NCBI GenBank assembly: GCA_030038445.1
Contig: JASHOW010000025.1
Coordinates: 1,281 to 65,280 of the forward strand
Reading direction: 5' to 3'
Length of the DNA: 64,000 bases
Origin: Nitrosopumilaceae archaeon
GTDB lineage: Archaea > Thermoproteota > Nitrososphaeria > Nitrososphaerales > Nitrosopumilaceae
Under the pieces are notes generated by a model, which was given only the letters and a program-made list of their open reading frames with translations, did no database searches and was not told the origin of the DNA. Position numbers and translations under genes: made by a program. Numbering within the stretch: the first letter of the stretch is position 1; each line of letters starts with the position of its first letter. Of this stretch, positions 23,277-46,463 are shown piece after piece.

Positions 23277-23564
23277 CTACTCATCAATATTCTTACTTAA
23301 ATTTGCTATCTGAAAACCCGTAATATGATGTGCGATTTTTTCGATTTGAGTTTCTGGAGTTAACTTTATTTGATGGTGATTTTTATCAAACGTTTTTCTG
23401 TACATTATTGAAGATCCTCTTTTACTTTTGGACTTACAGGTAGAATCATTTTCATTCCTTTTCCATGGCATATCGACCTTTTCTTTATTAATCCTGTTGT
23501 AACATCTAGTTACCTTGAATTTTGACTTGGTTTTCTGATGGCTTGGTGCATCACCTTGACTCAA
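23277..23564 (-). CDS. Basic hypothetical (spacer/coupling) ORF upstream of crcB
   Basis: TTGA overlap with the upstream HTH gene; ends 2 nt before the crcB ATG. Confidence 0.4.
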   Translation of the reverse strand: MSQGDAPSHQKTKSKFKVTRCYNRINKEKVDMPWKRNENDSTCKSKSKRGSSIMYRKTFDKNHHQIKLTPETQIEKIAHHITGFQIANLSKNIDE

Positions 23565-23812
23565 TCCTGCACAACCTCCGAAAATTTGAGATTGTATTTT
23601 GCCACTCTTCTGCGTCTCTCACCAATGATGTAGGTCTTTCTTATTACTCCTTGCCTTACCATGCTTTCTATTATTCTGTATGCTGTGCTTGAAGGGATCG
23701 CAAGCTCCAAGCTAATCTGAGAAACTGTCTTTGCATTATTTTGTATTGAGGTTCTAATGAGGTTGTTATATCTGGTTTCTTGTCTGCCTATTCTAGACAT
23801 GTTCCATATCAT
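23561..23812 (-). CDS. Small winged-helix (HTH) regulator
   Basis: KT.SQIS.EL.IP.STAYR; paralog of 31943-32176 and 50441-50731. Confidence 0.7.
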   Translation of the reverse strand: MIWNMSRIGRQETRYNNLIRTSIQNNAKTVSQISLELAIPSSTAYRIIESMVRQGVIRKTYIIGERRRRVAKYNLKFSEVVQD

Positions 23813-23939: not shown

Positions 23940-25493
23940 TCATATTGGAGACTTCTTAAGCGTTGTGTCAGTTTTTGCAGCTACAGGTCTATAACCTACA
24001 TACTTTTTCCTTCTCACGTGTTTAATGGTATATACGGCTGCCACCGCAACCGCAGCTGGTACAAAGAACAGAGGCATCAGCCAAAAATTCACATCACTAT
24101 TTCTTGCAGGCTCTACCATGGGCATATTCATGTCTGAGTTTGTACCGTTTCCAGGCTTAACTATGGTTGTAAACTGAACATCCTGACCACTATGTGCAAT
24201 GTCAGAAAAATCAAATGTTACGGGGCCAGGATTACTGAATGTAAAATACTGATATGCCCCACCAAACTGTGTAGACTCTTCGATGTGATAGAGTTGCTGT
24301 CCGCCCTGAGTAATAGTAAAGATATAGTGAGCTGGTATTGCCTCGTTTTGTATGTTGTCGTATATTTGGTAAATGAATATTATCTGCTGTCCGGTTGTAA
24401 TGTAATGCGGCTCCCAGTCAAGGTCCAACTCATATGCCCTATCAGGAGTGAATCGTACGACTGGAAACTTCATGATCTGATTTCCGAAAGCGTCAGTGGG
24501 TACAAGTGCTGCTGGTTGTACAATTACATATCCCTGCATCCATGGATGAATCTCACAGAAATACTCGAATGTTCCAGAACGTGTGAACTTTTGAGTCCAA
24601 GACCCTCCAATTGGAATGGTACCGCTGTCAAAGAGGCCATCGGGTTGTCCAACTCCATTGCCAAGAAGACCAGCCCTGCCTACAGAGTGACCGCTTGTTA
24701 CAGTATGGACCTCCTTGTCTTGATTTATCCAAGTTACATTCTGATTTACTCCAATTGTGATAACGGATGGTTCATACCACATGGGAGCAGCAGTATTGTA
24801 GTTTGGATCATATGCCCCATAGGGGATCGTAACTACCTGATTTGTTCCTTTAGGCGCATCTGATACTGCAATGCGTGCACTGTACTTCGCGCCAAGCGTT
24901 ATACTGAGTATCTCGTTTGGCCCCTTCCATTCAGCGGAGCTTATATCAGGAGGACCGGCGCCGTACAGCTGGATCTGAAAGTTGACTGGGCTTACGTTCT
25001 GAAGTGGGTCAGTCACCTGTATGTCTGTACCAGTGACTGCAACTGCAGTCTCGTTTGAGATTATCAAGACGCCGTTGCCTTCCATCTGTTGTGCCCTTAT
25101 CCCATAATTCTCATACGGAATCAGATTTCCATTCGAATCTGTAAATTTTATTTGCAATGCAAGTGACTGGTCTGCCTCTATTGGGGTCGATGTAATGGTA
25201 GCACGAACAGAACCGTCAGATGAGACTGCAGTTCCTTCAATCAGTTGGTGGCTGTTAGTTCCTTGCTGTGCTACTATCTGAGGGCTGTAATACCCTGTCT
25301 GTGCAAAGGCAGATTCCTGCACCAGATACAAACTAAACAGCATGACTATGATCACGCCTCCCAGAAGAGACCTCTTGAGGATCTCATTAGGTCTGACATG
25401 TACAAGCAGGCATAAACCTCTCAATAGACTAATATCATTCTCCCTACGATTTCTTTGTTTTTTGTTCATTGATATATCTACCCCCAATTCCAT
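23940..25493 (-). CDS. Membrane-anchored cupredoxin (plastocyanin-like) protein with N-terminal extension
   Basis: HTVTSG...FDSG...YFCEIHPWM; signal peptide preceded by ~40 extra aa; C-terminal TM. Alternative start at 25469. Confidence 0.85.
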   Translation of the reverse strand: MELGVDISMNKKQRNRRENDISLLRGLCLLVHVRPNEILKRSLLGGVIIVMLFSLYLVQESAFAQTGYYSPQIVAQQGTNSHQLIEGTAVSSDGSVRATITSTPIEADQSLALQIKFTDSNGNLIPYENYGIRAQQMEGNGVLIISNETAVAVTGTDIQVTDPLQNVSPVNFQIQLYGAGPPDISSAEWKGPNEILSITLGAKYSARIAVSDAPKGTNQVVTIPYGAYDPNYNTAAPMWYEPSVITIGVNQNVTWINQDKEVHTVTSGHSVGRAGLLGNGVGQPDGLFDSGTIPIGGSWTQKFTRSGTFEYFCEIHPWMQGYVIVQPAALVPTDAFGNQIMKFPVVRFTPDRAYELDLDWEPHYITTGQQIIFIYQIYDNIQNEAIPAHYIFTITQGGQQLYHIEESTQFGGAYQYFTFSNPGPVTFDFSDIAHSGQDVQFTTIVKPGNGTNSDMNMPMVEPARNSDVNFWLMPLFFVPAAVAVAAVYTIKHVRRKKYVGYRPVAAKTDTTLKKSPI

Positions 25494-25496
25494 TAG

Positions 25497-25558
25497 GTAG
25501 ACATTATTAGCGCCTTCTGGAGCAGTTTAGGAATCATTCCACGGCTAATGTCATAGCC
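25497..25558 (-). ncRNA. Fluoride (crcB) riboswitch aptamer, copy 1
   Basis: Minus strand GGCTATGACATTAGCC...TAAACTGC...GCTAATAATGTCTAC; P1, P2 and the GACATT/AATGTC pseudoknot match the crcB consensus. Confidence 0.9.
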
Positions 25559-25766
25559 TACAGCTTTTCCATCTATGTATCTACTATTAAGGATTTTCAT
25601 GATCCGTTTTTCGACACTTTCTTTACTAACATTAGACAGACAAAGAGGAGTAAAGATACGTGTTTGTTTTCTATCTTGAGTATGAGATCATACAACATAG
25701 AAAAACAATGCTGCAAAAATAAAGAAAAATAAATTATTCAAATTTAAATGAAAACATGTGTTAGAA

Positions 25767-26768
25767 TTAAATTCTAAAGGTTTGAGCAGAATCGTCTTCA
25801 AAAGACATATCGTCCTGAAACAATCTTGTTCGTAACTCTTTGTACCTGTTTCTCACAGTAACTTCAGTTACGCCAGATGCGCCTGCAATATTTTTCTGAG
25901 TTATTTTATTACCATTCATCATACAAGAAAGATACAATGCGGATGCTGCAAAACCAAGCGGATCTTTGCCAACAACAATATTAAATTCAGTTGCGCGTTG
26001 AATAATTTCTAGTGCTTTACGCTTTGTCTTTTCATTTATGTTGGTTTTACTTGCAATTCTTGCTACGCATTTCGTGGGATCTGCTATAGGCATTTTAAGA
26101 TCTAGTTCTCTGAGAATCAACCTGTAACATGCTGCCATCATTTTTTTGTTCACGTTAATTTCCTTTGAAATATCTTTTAGACTACGTGGAGTTTCAGTGT
26201 ATCTACATGCGGCGTAAAGAGAGGCGCCAAGTATCCCAGAAATGCTTCTACCTCTAGTCAGACCTTTATCGACCGCCTTTCTGTAAATATATGCAGCTTG
26301 TTCCAATATAACATACGAAAGTCCTAGTGAGTCTTTTAAGCGATCAAGCAAAGTAAAAGCTATACGAAGGTTTTTACTGTACATAGTATCAGTTTGACTA
26401 CGGCTATCCCACTTTCGTAGTCTTTCAATTGCATATTTCATGGGTGCAGAAAGTGGCCTGCCAAACGCATCTTTATCTACAGTACCAATAATGGTTGCAA
26501 GACCCATGTCATGTTTTGCAAGTGAATAGTGAGAACCGCTTCTAGCATTTCTGACATCATCATTGGACGGAACTCTTTCGGGTCCCAAGTCCTCAATTCT
26601 TTCTATCAGAACAAACCCACAATTATTACAGATTAATTCACCAGTTTCTGCATCAGCTATTATAATTCCTTTTTTACAGAAGAAGCAGCTTCGTTCCGCC
26701 TTGTTAATTTTGGTTAATTGTCTCGTTTTTGGATCTCCGGTGATCTCCATGTCATCATATGATGCCAT
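25767..26768 (-). CDS. tfb: Transcription initiation factor IIB paralog, downstream of a riboswitch
   Basis: C..C...GELICNNCG, HDMGLAT, GKDP, GVTEVTVRNRY. Confidence 0.93.
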   Translation of the reverse strand: MASYDDMEITGDPKTRQLTKINKAERSCFFCKKGIIIADAETGELICNNCGFVLIERIEDLGPERVPSNDDVRNARSGSHYSLAKHDMGLATIIGTVDKDAFGRPLSAPMKYAIERLRKWDSRSQTDTMYSKNLRIAFTLLDRLKDSLGLSYVILEQAAYIYRKAVDKGLTRGRSISGILGASLYAACRYTETPRSLKDISKEINVNKKMMAACYRLILRELDLKMPIADPTKCVARIASKTNINEKTKRKALEIIQRATEFNIVVGKDPLGFAASALYLSCMMNGNKITQKNIAGASGVTEVTVRNRYKELRTRLFQDDMSFEDDSAQTFRI

Positions 26769-26870
26769 TTATCTTACATCCAAGATTAATGCACGATCAA
26801 CATCATCAACAATACAACGGCATTCATCGTCAGATTTATTTTGTGATTTTTTTATCATCATGTCCACCAT
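26769..26870 (-). CDS. Riboswitch leader ORF (33 aa) abutting tfb
   Basis: Manual translation MVDMMIKKSQNKSDDECRCIVDDVDRALILDVR*; TAA is immediately followed by the tfb ATG. Confidence 0.5.
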   Translation of the reverse strand: MVDMMIKKSQNKSDDECRCIVDDVDRALILDVR

Positions 26871-26877
26871 TATGCTG

Positions 26878-26943
26878 GTAGACATTATCAGCATCGCACG
26901 ATGCAGTTAAGGAGCTAGTTACTCCATGGCTAATGCCATAGCC
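26878..26943 (-). ncRNA. Fluoride riboswitch aptamer, copy 2
   Basis: GGCTATGGCATTAGCC...TTAACTGCATCGTGCGATGCTGATAATGTCTAC. Confidence 0.9.
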
Positions 26944-27051
26944 GCGTTCCATACTCAGGTGACAATATTAAATCTTATGAATGCATACGATCTTCGTCAT
27001 GATTACAAAATAGTATCATCGGTTTTTTAGTCGGAATTACGAAATAAGGTT

Positions 27052-31942: not shown

Positions 31943-32176
31943 TCATATTGACAGACTGTATACTGCAACCCTCTTTCGATTTTTCCCAATAACATATCTT
32001 ATTTTCACGTATTTTAATTCGGCCAGTCTTTTAACTAATCTATATACCGTGCTTAGTGGAATGTCTGTTTTTTCACTGATAGTATTGATAGTTTTTTCAT
32101 TACTTCTTAATGATTCTATAATAAGTTTGTAGTATCTGCCTTGTATTCCAATATTTTTATCATTTTTATTTATCAT
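31943..32176 (-). CDS. Small winged-helix (HTH) regulator directly downstream of a riboswitch
   Basis: KTI..ISEKTDIPLSTVYR.V..L. Confidence 0.75.
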   Translation of the reverse strand: MINKNDKNIGIQGRYYKLIIESLRSNEKTINTISEKTDIPLSTVYRLVKRLAELKYVKIRYVIGKNRKRVAVYSLSI

Positions 32177-32193
32177 GTCTACTAATCCTCCAT

Positions 32194-32256
32194 GTAGACA
32201 TTATCAGCATCGCGCGATGCAGTTTAGGAGCTTATTCCATGGCTAATGCCATAGCC
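32194..32256 (-). ncRNA. Fluoride riboswitch aptamer, copy 3
   Basis: GGCTATGGCATTAGCCATGGAATAAGCTCCTAAACTGCATCGCGCGATGCTGATAATGTCTAC. Confidence 0.92.
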
Positions 32257-32367
32257 AACAGGTTAAAAATCCGAAATAGTAGATTTAAACTTTCAGACAT
32301 GTATACGAAATGGAGTTTCAAACCATAATCAATGTAAAATCCTAAATCAGAGAAATTTTAATTAGAT

Positions 32368-42847: not shown

Positions 42848-42867
42848 TGGTCTACCTGCTTTGCATT

Positions 42868-42965
42868 GGTAGACATTATCAGCTTCTTCTAGAGCAGTTT
42901 AGGATTCTCCATGGCTAATGTCCTAGCCTAATCTAATATATCATCATTCACATTTTTAAAGTTTT
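42868..42965. repeat. 98-bp direct repeat (promoter plus riboswitch), first copy
   Basis: Matches 46366-46463 with one mismatch (42951 C versus 46449 T). Confidence 0.9.
42869..42928 (-). ncRNA. Fluoride riboswitch aptamer, copy 5 (conserved U7 replaced by G)
   Basis: GGCTAGGACATTAGCC...TAAACTGCTCTAGAAGAAGCTGATAATGTCTAC. Confidence 0.82.
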
Positions 42966-43190: not shown

Positions 43191-43697
43191 TTAATGATGT
43201 GCCCCAAATTTTTCCATGCCTCTACTGTAGAAATCAAGAAACGCCTCGAAATCTACAGGCTCGTCTAAAATTTCTGCCATCTTTATTACTTTATCTACTA
43301 CAACAGCACACTGTTGTCTGAAATTATTCTCATTAAATTCTATTACAGTCAATTTTGTCTTTATACTTTGTATTTCCTCTAGATTATCATTAACTATCAG
43401 TATAACTTTCAATCCTTTTCCTTGTGCATAGCCTATTTCCTGATTAATCAGACTTGAATTAAGAAAATCCGAAGTAAGAACCGCAATAAAGCAGATGGAT
43501 AAGCGAATCATATCTTTTATTTCGTCAAAAATAAAATTACCATAAGATTCACTATTTGACATATAAGCCCCAAATCCTTTTTCCCCGAGCATATGTTCTA
43601 AAACAGACGCTTTTTCACAATCTTCTTTGGCATAACATACAAATACTTTAAATTTATGGTGCGGTTTCTCTGGTTTTCCTGTATTACCTTGACTCAA
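43191..43697 (-). CDS. Stand-alone TIR-domain protein
   Basis: KVFVCYA.ED, FIAVLT.DF..S...NQEIGYA with the putative catalytic Glu. Confidence 0.8.
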   Translation of the reverse strand: MSQGNTGKPEKPHHKFKVFVCYAKEDCEKASVLEHMLGEKGFGAYMSNSESYGNFIFDEIKDMIRLSICFIAVLTSDFLNSSLINQEIGYAQGKGLKVILIVNDNLEEIQSIKTKLTVIEFNENNFRQQCAVVVDKVIKMAEILDEPVDFEAFLDFYSRGMEKFGAHH

Positions 43698-43801
43698 TTT
43701 TTATCTCCTCTGTTACAATTAGACTTAGCATTTGGCAAGTGCGATCTATAGTCACAGCTAAGTTTTTTGTAAGAAAAATTTGTACCCAGTTTGTATTTCA
43801 T
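43694..43801 (-). CDS. Riboswitch leader ORF (35 aa) coupled to the TIR gene
   Basis: MKYKLGTNFSYKKLSCDYRSHLPNAKSNCNRGDKN*; TTGA overlap with the TIR start. Confidence 0.45.
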   Translation of the reverse strand: MKYKLGTNFSYKKLSCDYRSHLPNAKSNCNRGDKN

Positions 43802-43827
43802 TTGTCTATCTACCTAAATCCCATTCG

Positions 43828-43892
43828 GCAGACATCATCAGCACCTTTTCGGGAGCGGTTTTGGCTTTTACACCAAGGCTAATGTCATAGCC
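43828..43892 (-). ncRNA. Fluoride riboswitch aptamer, copy 6
   Basis: GGCTATGACATTAGCC...AAAACCGCTCCCGAAAAGGTGCTGATGATGTCTGC. Confidence 0.88.
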
Positions 43893-44190
43893 ACTTTTTA
43901 TTCGCTAGATGATTTTTTAAGTTTTGCTATATGTCAGAATTTGTTGCGATTTCATTTTGAAATCATGGGTTTTGATCAGAGCTGCAAACTAATCTTTTAA
44001 TTCTACAGATAGAAGTAATATTTTCTAACTAGGATGGAGAACCTATAACGTATAGAAAAGATCTATAGTGGAAAAAGTCCAGGAGACAGAATCGTATTCC
44101 ACGTAAGAGGAGAACTAAACAGTTTATGTCAGTAAGATGGACTAGTTCTCAGATAAATGTTCATCAAGACAAAAATAACTTGGTTTCGAA

Positions 44191-46166: not shown

Positions 46167-46363
46167 GTTTTTCCCCTTAGAAATGTGCTCAAGATGGACT
46201 TTGAAGGCTGTTTGAACGTACAACAAAAATAAGACTCGAGATGTTTGCTATGTAGTTTGATTTGTGAAAAGACATAACTTTTTAATGATAAAATATTTTG
46301 ATTACATGTTCCTCCTACTATGCTTGAATTTAGTTCTTTCATGCTATCTACCCATTTTTTCAT
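46163..46363 (-). CDS. Riboswitch leader ORF (66 aa) coupled to the AsnC-like gene
   Basis: ATG 3 nt after the aptamer; ATGA overlap at 46163-46166. Confidence 0.5.
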   Translation of the reverse strand: MKKWVDSMKELNSSIVGGTCNQNILSLKSYVFSQIKLHSKHLESYFCCTFKQPSKSILSTFLRGKT

Positions 46364-46365
46364 TC

Positions 46366-46463
46366 GGTAGACATTATCAGCTTCTTCTAGAGCAGTTTAG
46401 GATTCTCCATGGCTAATGTCCTAGCCTAATCTAATATATCATCATTCATATTTTTAAAGTTTT
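46366..46463. repeat. 98-bp direct repeat (promoter plus riboswitch), second copy
   Basis: 97/98 identical to 42868-42965. Confidence 0.9.
46367..46426 (-). ncRNA. Fluoride riboswitch aptamer, copy 8 (identical to copy 5)
   Basis: Same sequence as 42869-42928. Confidence 0.82.

Follow-up and report, generated by a model that had tools for sequence, protein, structure and literature searches.

A putative fluoride-inducible gene for an alternative TFB in an acid-soil archaeon of the Nitrosotalea group

A tfb paralogue behind a fluoride aptamer and a leader ORF

The window analysed here is a stretch of 64,000 nucleotides from the genome of a Nitrosopumilaceae archaeon (GenBank assembly GCA_030038445.1, contig JASHOW010000025.1, positions 1,281 to 65,280). 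On its minus strand it contains a gene for a paralogue of the archaeal general transcription initiation factor TFB, which is preceded by a fluoride riboswitch aptamer and a short leader open reading frame (ORF). From the parts of this unit, their order, their conservation and the selection on the protein, all of which are observed, we infer a response to the ligand, a coupling of leader and tfb, and a role for the protein. The unit is accordingly read as probably encoding an alternative transcription initiation factor whose synthesis is induced by fluoride, in that a translational ON switch would be passed on to tfb by termination-reinitiation; judged from the sequence, the probability of this reading is about 60%. 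The original prediction for this DNA, whose span 25767-26943 is bounded by the tfb stop codon and the opening base of P1, had named an aptamer, a 33-residue leader and an intact tfb in this order. All three are real, and their coordinates are correct to the base. The host is an acid-soil ammonia-oxidising archaeon of the Nitrosotalea group; the housekeeping TFB of two congeners is identical to one named Nitrosotalea devaniterrae in the database.

The elements of the unit, in the order of transcription, are:

26964..26973, minus strand: TATA-like box ATTTAATATT, about 30 nt upstream of P1, read from the sequence; putative promoter
26872..26952, minus strand: fluoride riboswitch aptamer (crcB motif, RF01734), cmscan 38.6 bits
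26860..26885, minus strand: sequestrator hairpin (RNAfold), predicted to compete with the pseudoknot and to cover the leader start codons
26769..26870, minus strand: leader ORF, from AUG 26870 to UAA 26771-26769
26766..26771, minus strand: UAA/AUG stop/start junction with a 0-nt spacer, read from the sequence
25767..26768, minus strand: tfb paralogue ('F-TFB'), 333 aa, intact; two Pfam TFIIB repeats, NF001658, 1D3U_B
25701..25729, minus strand: three T5 tracts 3' of the tfb stop, read from the sequence; probable end of the transcription unit
25491-25567, minus strand: next aptamer after tfb

The proposed course of events begins at the putative promoter, which is located some 30 nt ahead of P1 and would yield an mRNA starting with the fluoride aptamer. 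Without fluoride, the 3' strand of the pseudoknot would pair with the start region of the leader in a 10-bp hairpin, and ribosomes would be blocked from starting. With fluoride, the pseudoknot would form, the start region would be freed, and the leader would be translated. Ribosomes stopping at the UAA could restart at the adjoining AUG (termination-reinitiation), and the TFB paralogue would be made. The protein is predicted to be functional and should bind TBP and DNA with a TATA box and a TFB-recognition element (BRE) as the housekeeping TFB does. Its B-reader, the part expected near the RNA polymerase active site and the template strand, is changed, so that the paralogue probably alters or sustains initiation during fluoride stress. 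The island of fluoride-related genes around tfb would be the obvious candidate target.

The aptamer and its promoter

The aptamer was detected with cmscan and Rfam 15 at 26872-26952 (minus strand) with 38.6 bits and an E-value of 3.7e-07; the match covers model positions 1-64, and the gathering score of RF01734 is 34 bits. No non-canonical pairs were flagged by cmscan in P1 and P2. As read from the sequence, a pseudoknot can form between GGCAUU in the P1 loop and AAUGUC in the 3' tail, with one G-U pair; in other aptamer copies, a covarying change combines GACAUU with GAUGUC. The conserved P1 and 3' tail recur in aptamers that stand before crcB in relatives, and the tail AUAAUGUCUAC of the tfb aptamer is also present in these crcB-preceding copies. 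The sole crcB copy of the genome and a DUF190 gene are located in the same island, 3.5 kb from the tfb aptamer.

The TATA-like box is equidistant from P1 in all 15 aptamer units of this genome and of a congeneric genome, G121. Most of the other aptamer promoters additionally contain an A-rich BRE (AAAAC), which is missing from the tfb promoter (26964-26985) and from its G121 counterpart (L082:1770-1800). At the level of sequence, this suggests a weaker basal transcription of both island tfb units. Oligo-T is the usual archaeal termination signal, and the T5 tracts at 25701-25729 probably mark the end of the tfb transcription unit.

A predicted hairpin over the start codons of the leader

The predicted 10-bp hairpin consists of AUGUCUACCA (26885-26876), the loop GCAUAA, and UGGUGGACAU (26869-26860), and is present in both the minimum free energy and the centroid structure calculated by RNAfold. 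The fold of the 121-nt RNA that includes it has a z-score of -3.6 relative to shuffled sequences. The 5' arm of the hairpin includes the pseudoknot strand AAUGUC, and the 3' arm together with the loop holds or touches all three candidate AUGs of the leader. In a set of 100 distinct Nitrososphaerota aptamers (window, G121 loci L081 and L082, and L225-L304, with crcB-preceding aptamers included), the equivalent stem has a mean length of 9.2 bp, which drops to 5.6 bp when the downstream sequence is shuffled. About 95 of the 100 have an AUG located between -2 and +5 nt relative to the 3' arm. Furthermore, the arms vary in a compensatory manner, for example CUCCAG/CUGGAG and CUACUCA/UGAGUAG. An anti-pseudoknot hairpin beside the start codon appears to be near-universal in the fluoride riboswitches of Nitrososphaerota and looks like a lineage-wide translational expression platform.

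Inspection of the sequence revealed no U-run after the hairpin or within the leader. Lacking a U-run, the leader does not resemble an archaeal terminator, and transcription attenuation was rejected as a mode of control. A hairpin that covers start codons, is kept throughout the lineage and is followed by no U-run has the design of a translational ON switch. A fluoride-inducible tfb is further supported by the presence of the hairpin in both predicted structures, by its compensatory changes, and by its occurrence before crcB, the known fluoride exporter gene.

The leader ORF and its junction with tfb

The leader encodes 33 residues when read from AUG 26870; starts at the in-frame AUGs 26861 and 26858 would shorten it to 30 and 29 residues, respectively. 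The tfb AUG (26768) directly abuts the UAA of the leader. The G121 counterpart has a leader of 47 codons, which is weakly similar (IKKSQNKSDDEC versus IKNQNESDVDC) and whose UGA overlaps the tfb AUG by 4 nt as AUGA. The other island leaders overlap the following start codon as AUGA or UUGA. Termination-reinitiation in archaea requires stop-start pairs that overlap, are adjacent or are very close (PMC6728339, PMC10666635), and the abutting or overlapping pairs in both genomes fit this requirement. The ratio of nonsynonymous to synonymous substitution rates (dN/dS) is 0.42 for the tfb leader, in a short and noisy alignment; a second leader gave 0.69, likewise in a short alignment. Since the leader peptides are poorly conserved, translation itself rather than the peptide sequence probably matters. 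Leader and tfb are in frame across the UAA in the window; a read-through fusion of leader and TFB was rejected because the frames differ in G121.

A clear Shine-Dalgarno (SD) sequence was not found upstream of the tfb AUG. The 3' end of the 16S rRNA, where the anti-SD sequence would be read, was not found in the assembly. TATA-like hexamers peak 25-34 nt 5' of start codons throughout this genome, and most mRNAs therefore look leaderless and the genes SD-less. In such a genome, a leader ORF would be needed to pass ribosomes to tfb. The riboswitch-led mRNAs are exceptions to the leaderless pattern and carry their own start module. The same module drives other island genes, either via coupled leaders or by in-frame fusion to the start of the module. 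An internal promoter for a leaderless tfb mRNA was also considered and rejected, because neither genome has a TATA-like hexamer 25-34 nt before the tfb AUG.

An intact but divergent TFB

The tfb ORF (25767-26768, minus strand) encodes 333 residues and is free of internal stops. The protein matches the Pfam family TFIIB in two repeats (4.6e-39), and residues 131-316 match chain B of PDB entry 1D3U, the TFB core of P. woesei, at 4.5e-41. The Pfam entry Zn_Ribbon_TF scored 25.8 bits, which is under its cut-off of 29; yet all four Cys residues are present as CFFC-x15-CNNC (CxxC-x15-CxxC). The alignment to NCBIfam NF001658 covers positions 5-306 of 312, and its 311.8 bits are below the curated cut-off of 384. 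A full-length alignment that stays under the cut-off indicates a divergent paralogue rather than a canonical orthologue. Aligned to the housekeeping TFB, the protein has kept the zinc ribbon, the B-linker, both cyclin repeats and the recognition helix. The BRE-recognition helix in repeat 2, VTEVTVRNRYKEL, is identical to that of P. woesei TFB; the housekeeping TFB differs only in two positions (V to I and E to G). About 22 additional N-terminal residues and an acidic C-terminal tail are further characteristics of the window TFB. The genome contains two genes for TBP, neither of which lies within the island.

The B-reader motif PEWRxF is altered. The housekeeping TFB reads GPEWRSFS, while the window TFB has GPE-RVPS and the G121 protein SPE-RIIT, without the Trp and Phe and with two one-residue gaps. 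By alignment, the lost Trp presumably corresponds to W44 of P. furiosus TFB1. It is missing in four of the six TFB paralogues of this genome, which makes its loss a general trait of the alternative TFB copies. In the paper from which the numbering of W44 is taken, mutations in the B-reader are reported to impair promoter opening (PMC13502027).

The island TFBs of the window and of G121 have a dN/dS value of 0.18 (dN 0.24; dS 1.35, near saturation), which indicates purifying selection. Together with the retention of the modules for docking to DNA, TBP and RNA polymerase, this value argues for a functional TFB. A maximum-likelihood tree built from TFB paralogues places the two proteins as sisters with a support of 94/91, a stem of 0.44, and tips of 0.38 and 0.50. 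Their sequence identity is 65%, compared to 79-95% for the flanking genes, 72-88% for a Hyf-like operon of the island and 82% for crcB; the housekeeping TFBs of both genomes are identical. In comparison with its flanks, the island TFB evolves fast.

Conservation of the linkage

Fluoride aptamers were found in 35 of 151 genomes of the family. The genome studied here has eight and G121 seven, all on one contig; each of the others has at most two. Five further genomes, which were reached by a pattern scan of GTDB, carry two or three. The original prediction had proposed that riboswitch-tfb linkage be surveyed in other genomes, and this survey identified an orthologous case. In G121, an aptamer of 37.9 bits lies upstream of the sole close relative of the window TFB, and the order of aptamer, leader, tfb and next aptamer is common to both genomes. 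It also identified a second aptamer-led TFB in G121, of 340 aa, which is 50% identical to the window TFB and sits on a long branch. Its operon (contig C37:55177-57541, minus strand; L081:5177-7541) comprises an aptamer, a 54-codon leader, and genes for DUF6659, TFB, TIR and AsnC-like proteins, and has overlapping stops and starts. The best outside match of this second TFB (51%) is located among housekeeping genes and has no aptamer context.

The scan of GTDB used an exact pattern that covers only the thaumarchaeal aptamer subtype. It gave 90 loci, and the 80 of them that were listed all belong to Nitrososphaerota or labelled relatives. Among these listed loci of the thaumarchaeal subtype, a TFB downstream of the aptamer was found in G121 only. 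A scan of metagenomes with the 15-mer GCTRATAATGTCTAC produced 119 stretches; the 80 listed contained seven true aptamers, none with a TFB, and the rest were mostly chance matches. No further member of the island-TFB clade was found in 5.8 billion protein clusters, where the remaining proteins are at most 62% identical, which is the level of the housekeeping TFB. Among the genomes and metagenomes searched, the clade is confined to the two genomes with seven to eight aptamers. This restriction, the conserved order in G121 and the second aptamer-led TFB there all support a fluoride-inducible tfb. That thaumarchaea possess several TFB paralogues, as the original prediction had stated, is borne out by two to ten or more TFB matches per relative genome. 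A TFB paralogue of 41% identity was also observed in a Nitrosarchaeum metagenome-assembled genome (MAG; L245:1749-3110) and in genome G054 (L072:1500-2907), where it is divergent to a crcB aptamer and not under the switch.

These data bear on a different explanation, in which the module of promoter, aptamer and leader was duplicated before tfb without gaining control of it, tfb being expressed independently from an internal or leaderless start, or decaying. Duplication of the module is clear, since two aptamers of the island (W5 and W6) are near-identical and the tfb aptamer shares P2 and the 3' half with an aptamer preceding a small winged helix-turn-helix (wHTH) regulator. Most genes of the genome look leaderless, and the TFB pair evolves fast, which would also fit this explanation. 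However, the linkage and the stop/start junction have been kept across 35% protein divergence, and a second TFB is part of an aptamer-led operon in G121. Moreover, both copies are intact at a dN/dS value of 0.18, and a TATA-like hexamer is absent 25-34 nt before either tfb AUG. We therefore consider linkage without control improbable.

Possible targets of the TFB

The original prediction had suggested a cascade in which the fluoride-induced TFB activates island genes that lack a switch. In this specific form, the TFB would prefer promoters of its own and would activate the switchless genes (HAD, enolase, Dps/Rieske, Usp, DUF190) or, in a feed-forward manner, the aptamer units; we regard such a cascade as possible, though less probable than the switch itself. 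The switchless genes are all encoded on the opposite strand, so that no aptamer operon can cover them. Several of them are divergent partners of aptamer promoters, namely HAD with tfb, Usp with wHTH, and DUF190 with the Hyf-like operon. In addition, TFBs are the only aptamer-controlled DNA binders found in both islands, and the TFB clade co-occurs only with expanded islands. On the other hand, two small aptamer-led wHTH regulators in the window could do the same job. The aptamer promoters conform to a strong generic consensus of A-rich BRE and TATA and are alike partly through duplication of the module. An island-specific promoter class was rejected, because this consensus is genome-wide and the similarity is related to duplication.

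Several further observations weigh against the reading of the unit as fluoride-inducible tfb, the first two of them also against the cascade. The recognition helix is as in the housekeeping and P. woesei TFBs, so that a special BRE or promoter selectivity is not predicted. A BRE common to the switchless genes, which the original prediction had proposed to look for, was not seen in their upstream regions, nor was a common operator; inspection and pairwise alignment with G121, a weak test, revealed only generic TATA-like boxes. The 65% identity of the island TFBs could reflect relaxed constraint. The sequence ATTAAT at -22 to -17 of the tfb AUG is a possible weak internal promoter. Finally, only two genomes have the arrangement, and both are uncultured MAGs.

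The unchanged DNA- and TBP-binding core and recognition helix would suit a non-selective stress factor, one that shares its promoters with the housekeeping TFB and modifies initiation across the whole genome, with no defined regulon. Such a factor might cause weaker promoter opening, like TFB2 of P. furiosus, or might provide an initiation step with a better tolerance of fluoride stress. The island contains spare copies of fluoride-sensitive enzymes (enolase, HAD phosphatase), which fit the logic of a replacement part. However, TFB is not a known target of fluoride, and the loss of Trp in four of six paralogues is not particular to the island copy. A specific regulon and a non-selective role via the B-reader are of similar likelihood, and neither can be called probable.

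In its widest form, the fluoride-inducible switch would amount to a swap of initiation factors. Fluoride would be sensed directly by the mRNA. Production of one TFB here and of two in G121 would be restricted to fluoride stress, and these factors would steer RNA polymerase towards a stress regulon. This extension is tentative.

Relation to known systems and significance

It is already known that TFB paralogues are induced by stress and that a bacterial riboswitch stands ahead of a sigma-factor operon. Compared to known fluoride riboswitch regulons (RF01734), the unit shares the aptamer fold and a locus with crcB, DUF190, enolase, Usp, HAD phosphatase and an Mrp/Hyf-like complex. It differs from them in three respects: the controlled gene encodes a general transcription initiation factor; the predicted platform is a start-site sequestrator with a coupled leader ORF and not a terminator; and eight aptamers are clustered in 21 kb, whereas the aptamer-bearing relatives usually carry a single copy and never more than three.

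Stress-linked TFBs have been described in several archaea. TFB2 of P. furiosus has a divergent B-reader and supports transcription with weaker promoter opening (PMC13502027), and the UV-induced TFB3 of Sulfolobus turns on genes of the damage response (PMC6101594, PMC6101591). As in these cases and in the Tfb paralogues of Halobacterium, a paralogue is tied to a stress condition in the window, and like P. furiosus TFB2 it combines a divergent B-reader with a kept core domain. Unlike Sulfolobus TFB3, the window TFB is full length and has both cyclin repeats. Induction of the known factors, where described, occurs at the transcript level, whereas a ligand-sensing RNA in the factor's own mRNA is predicted here.

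The closest parallel in logic is found in Clostridioides difficile, where the c-di-GMP riboswitch Cd1 is located upstream of the flgB operon, which encodes SigD (PMC5386303, PMC11477304). In both cases a riboswitch leads the unit of an initiation factor, and the ligand would reprogram transcription in trans. Cd1 responds to a second messenger, controls a bacterial sigma factor and is an OFF switch based on transcription termination. In contrast, the unit described here concerns an archaeal TFB and a toxic anion, and is predicted to be a translational ON switch operating via a leader ORF. Archaeal termination-reinitiation pairs have the same adjacent or overlapping stops and starts (UAA/AUG here, AUGA in G121). 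The upstream partner in the present case is a poorly conserved leader of 29-47 codons behind a riboswitch rather than the gene of a subunit, and the coupling would transmit the decision of the riboswitch.

A full-text search of a literature library found no paper that ties a fluoride riboswitch to TFB, Thaumarchaeota or Nitrosotalea. If the proposed function is true, this would be the first cascade from a riboswitch to a general transcription factor in archaea, and the TFB would act like an extracytoplasmic function (ECF) sigma factor. The deployment of the many archaeal TFB paralogues is known in few model species, and archaeal riboswitch mechanisms are little studied. With a defined ligand, RNA switch and factor, the question of TFB reprogramming becomes testable with a simple inducer. 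The locus also illustrates how genes lacking an SD sequence may come under riboswitch control in a mostly leaderless organism, namely by a portable module of promoter, aptamer, hairpin and start that is joined to a coupled leader ORF. In acid soils, the habitat of Nitrosotalea, fluoride gets into cells in the form of HF. The present genome and G121 have the largest sets of fluoride aptamers among the relatives searched, which fits this ecology.

The eight-aptamer island

All eight fluoride aptamers fall into a 21-kb stretch of one contig and share the minus strand; four score above the Rfam cut-off and four just below it (28-32.5 bits). A scan with RF01734 found no fluoride aptamer elsewhere in the 1.49-Mb genome, which is 89.7% complete. 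The aptamers precede the following genes:

W1: TIR-domain protein
W2: tfb paralogue (25767-26768)
W3: six-gene Mrp/Hyf-like membrane complex
W4: 77-aa winged-helix regulator
W5: DUF6659 protein
W6: AsnC-type ligand-domain protein
W7: operon of a secreted cupredoxin protein that ends in crcB-DUF190
W8: MFS transporter

Genes for a HAD phosphatase, enolase, a Dps-like ferritin, a Rieske protein, Usp and a second DUF190 protein are located on the opposite strand and have no aptamers. Most of the genes crcB, DUF190, enolase, Usp, HAD phosphatase and Mrp/Hyf-like complex are typical of fluoride regulons.

The island comprises about 24 kb (window 22574-47107) between a PBP-like and an EF-Tu-like gene, and its G+C content resembles that of the flanks. 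In two congeners, the locus consists of a 358-aa gene, the PBP-like gene, an aptamer, crcB, DUF190 and the EF-Tu-like gene; elsewhere in the family, genomes that have an aptamer mostly carry just one, usually ahead of crcB. The single aptamer-crcB-DUF190 arrangement at the same site in the congeners indicates that the island is an expansion, by about 24 kb, of an ancestral crcB locus.

Traces of module duplication are visible at several sites. The aptamers at 42863-42937 and 46361-46435 (minus strand) and their promoters are almost identical, yet unrelated genes follow (DUF6659 and AsnC-like, respectively); the near-identity of W5 and W6 points to a recent duplication of the regulatory module. 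An aptamer of 36.4 bits stands directly before the 77-aa wHTH regulator (TrmB/IclR-type HTH; window 31943-32265, minus strand; gene 31943-32176), without a leader ORF. Its P2 and 3' half are nearly identical to the corresponding parts of the tfb aptamer, which suggests that the two are sister copies. The second small winged-helix regulator behind an aptamer has 83 residues (23561-23812). A stand-alone TIR protein (43191-43901, minus strand; Pfam TIR_2, 3.7e-10) is aptamer-led via a 35-codon leader with a UUGA overlap, and a TIR gene is also part of the aptamer operon in G121.

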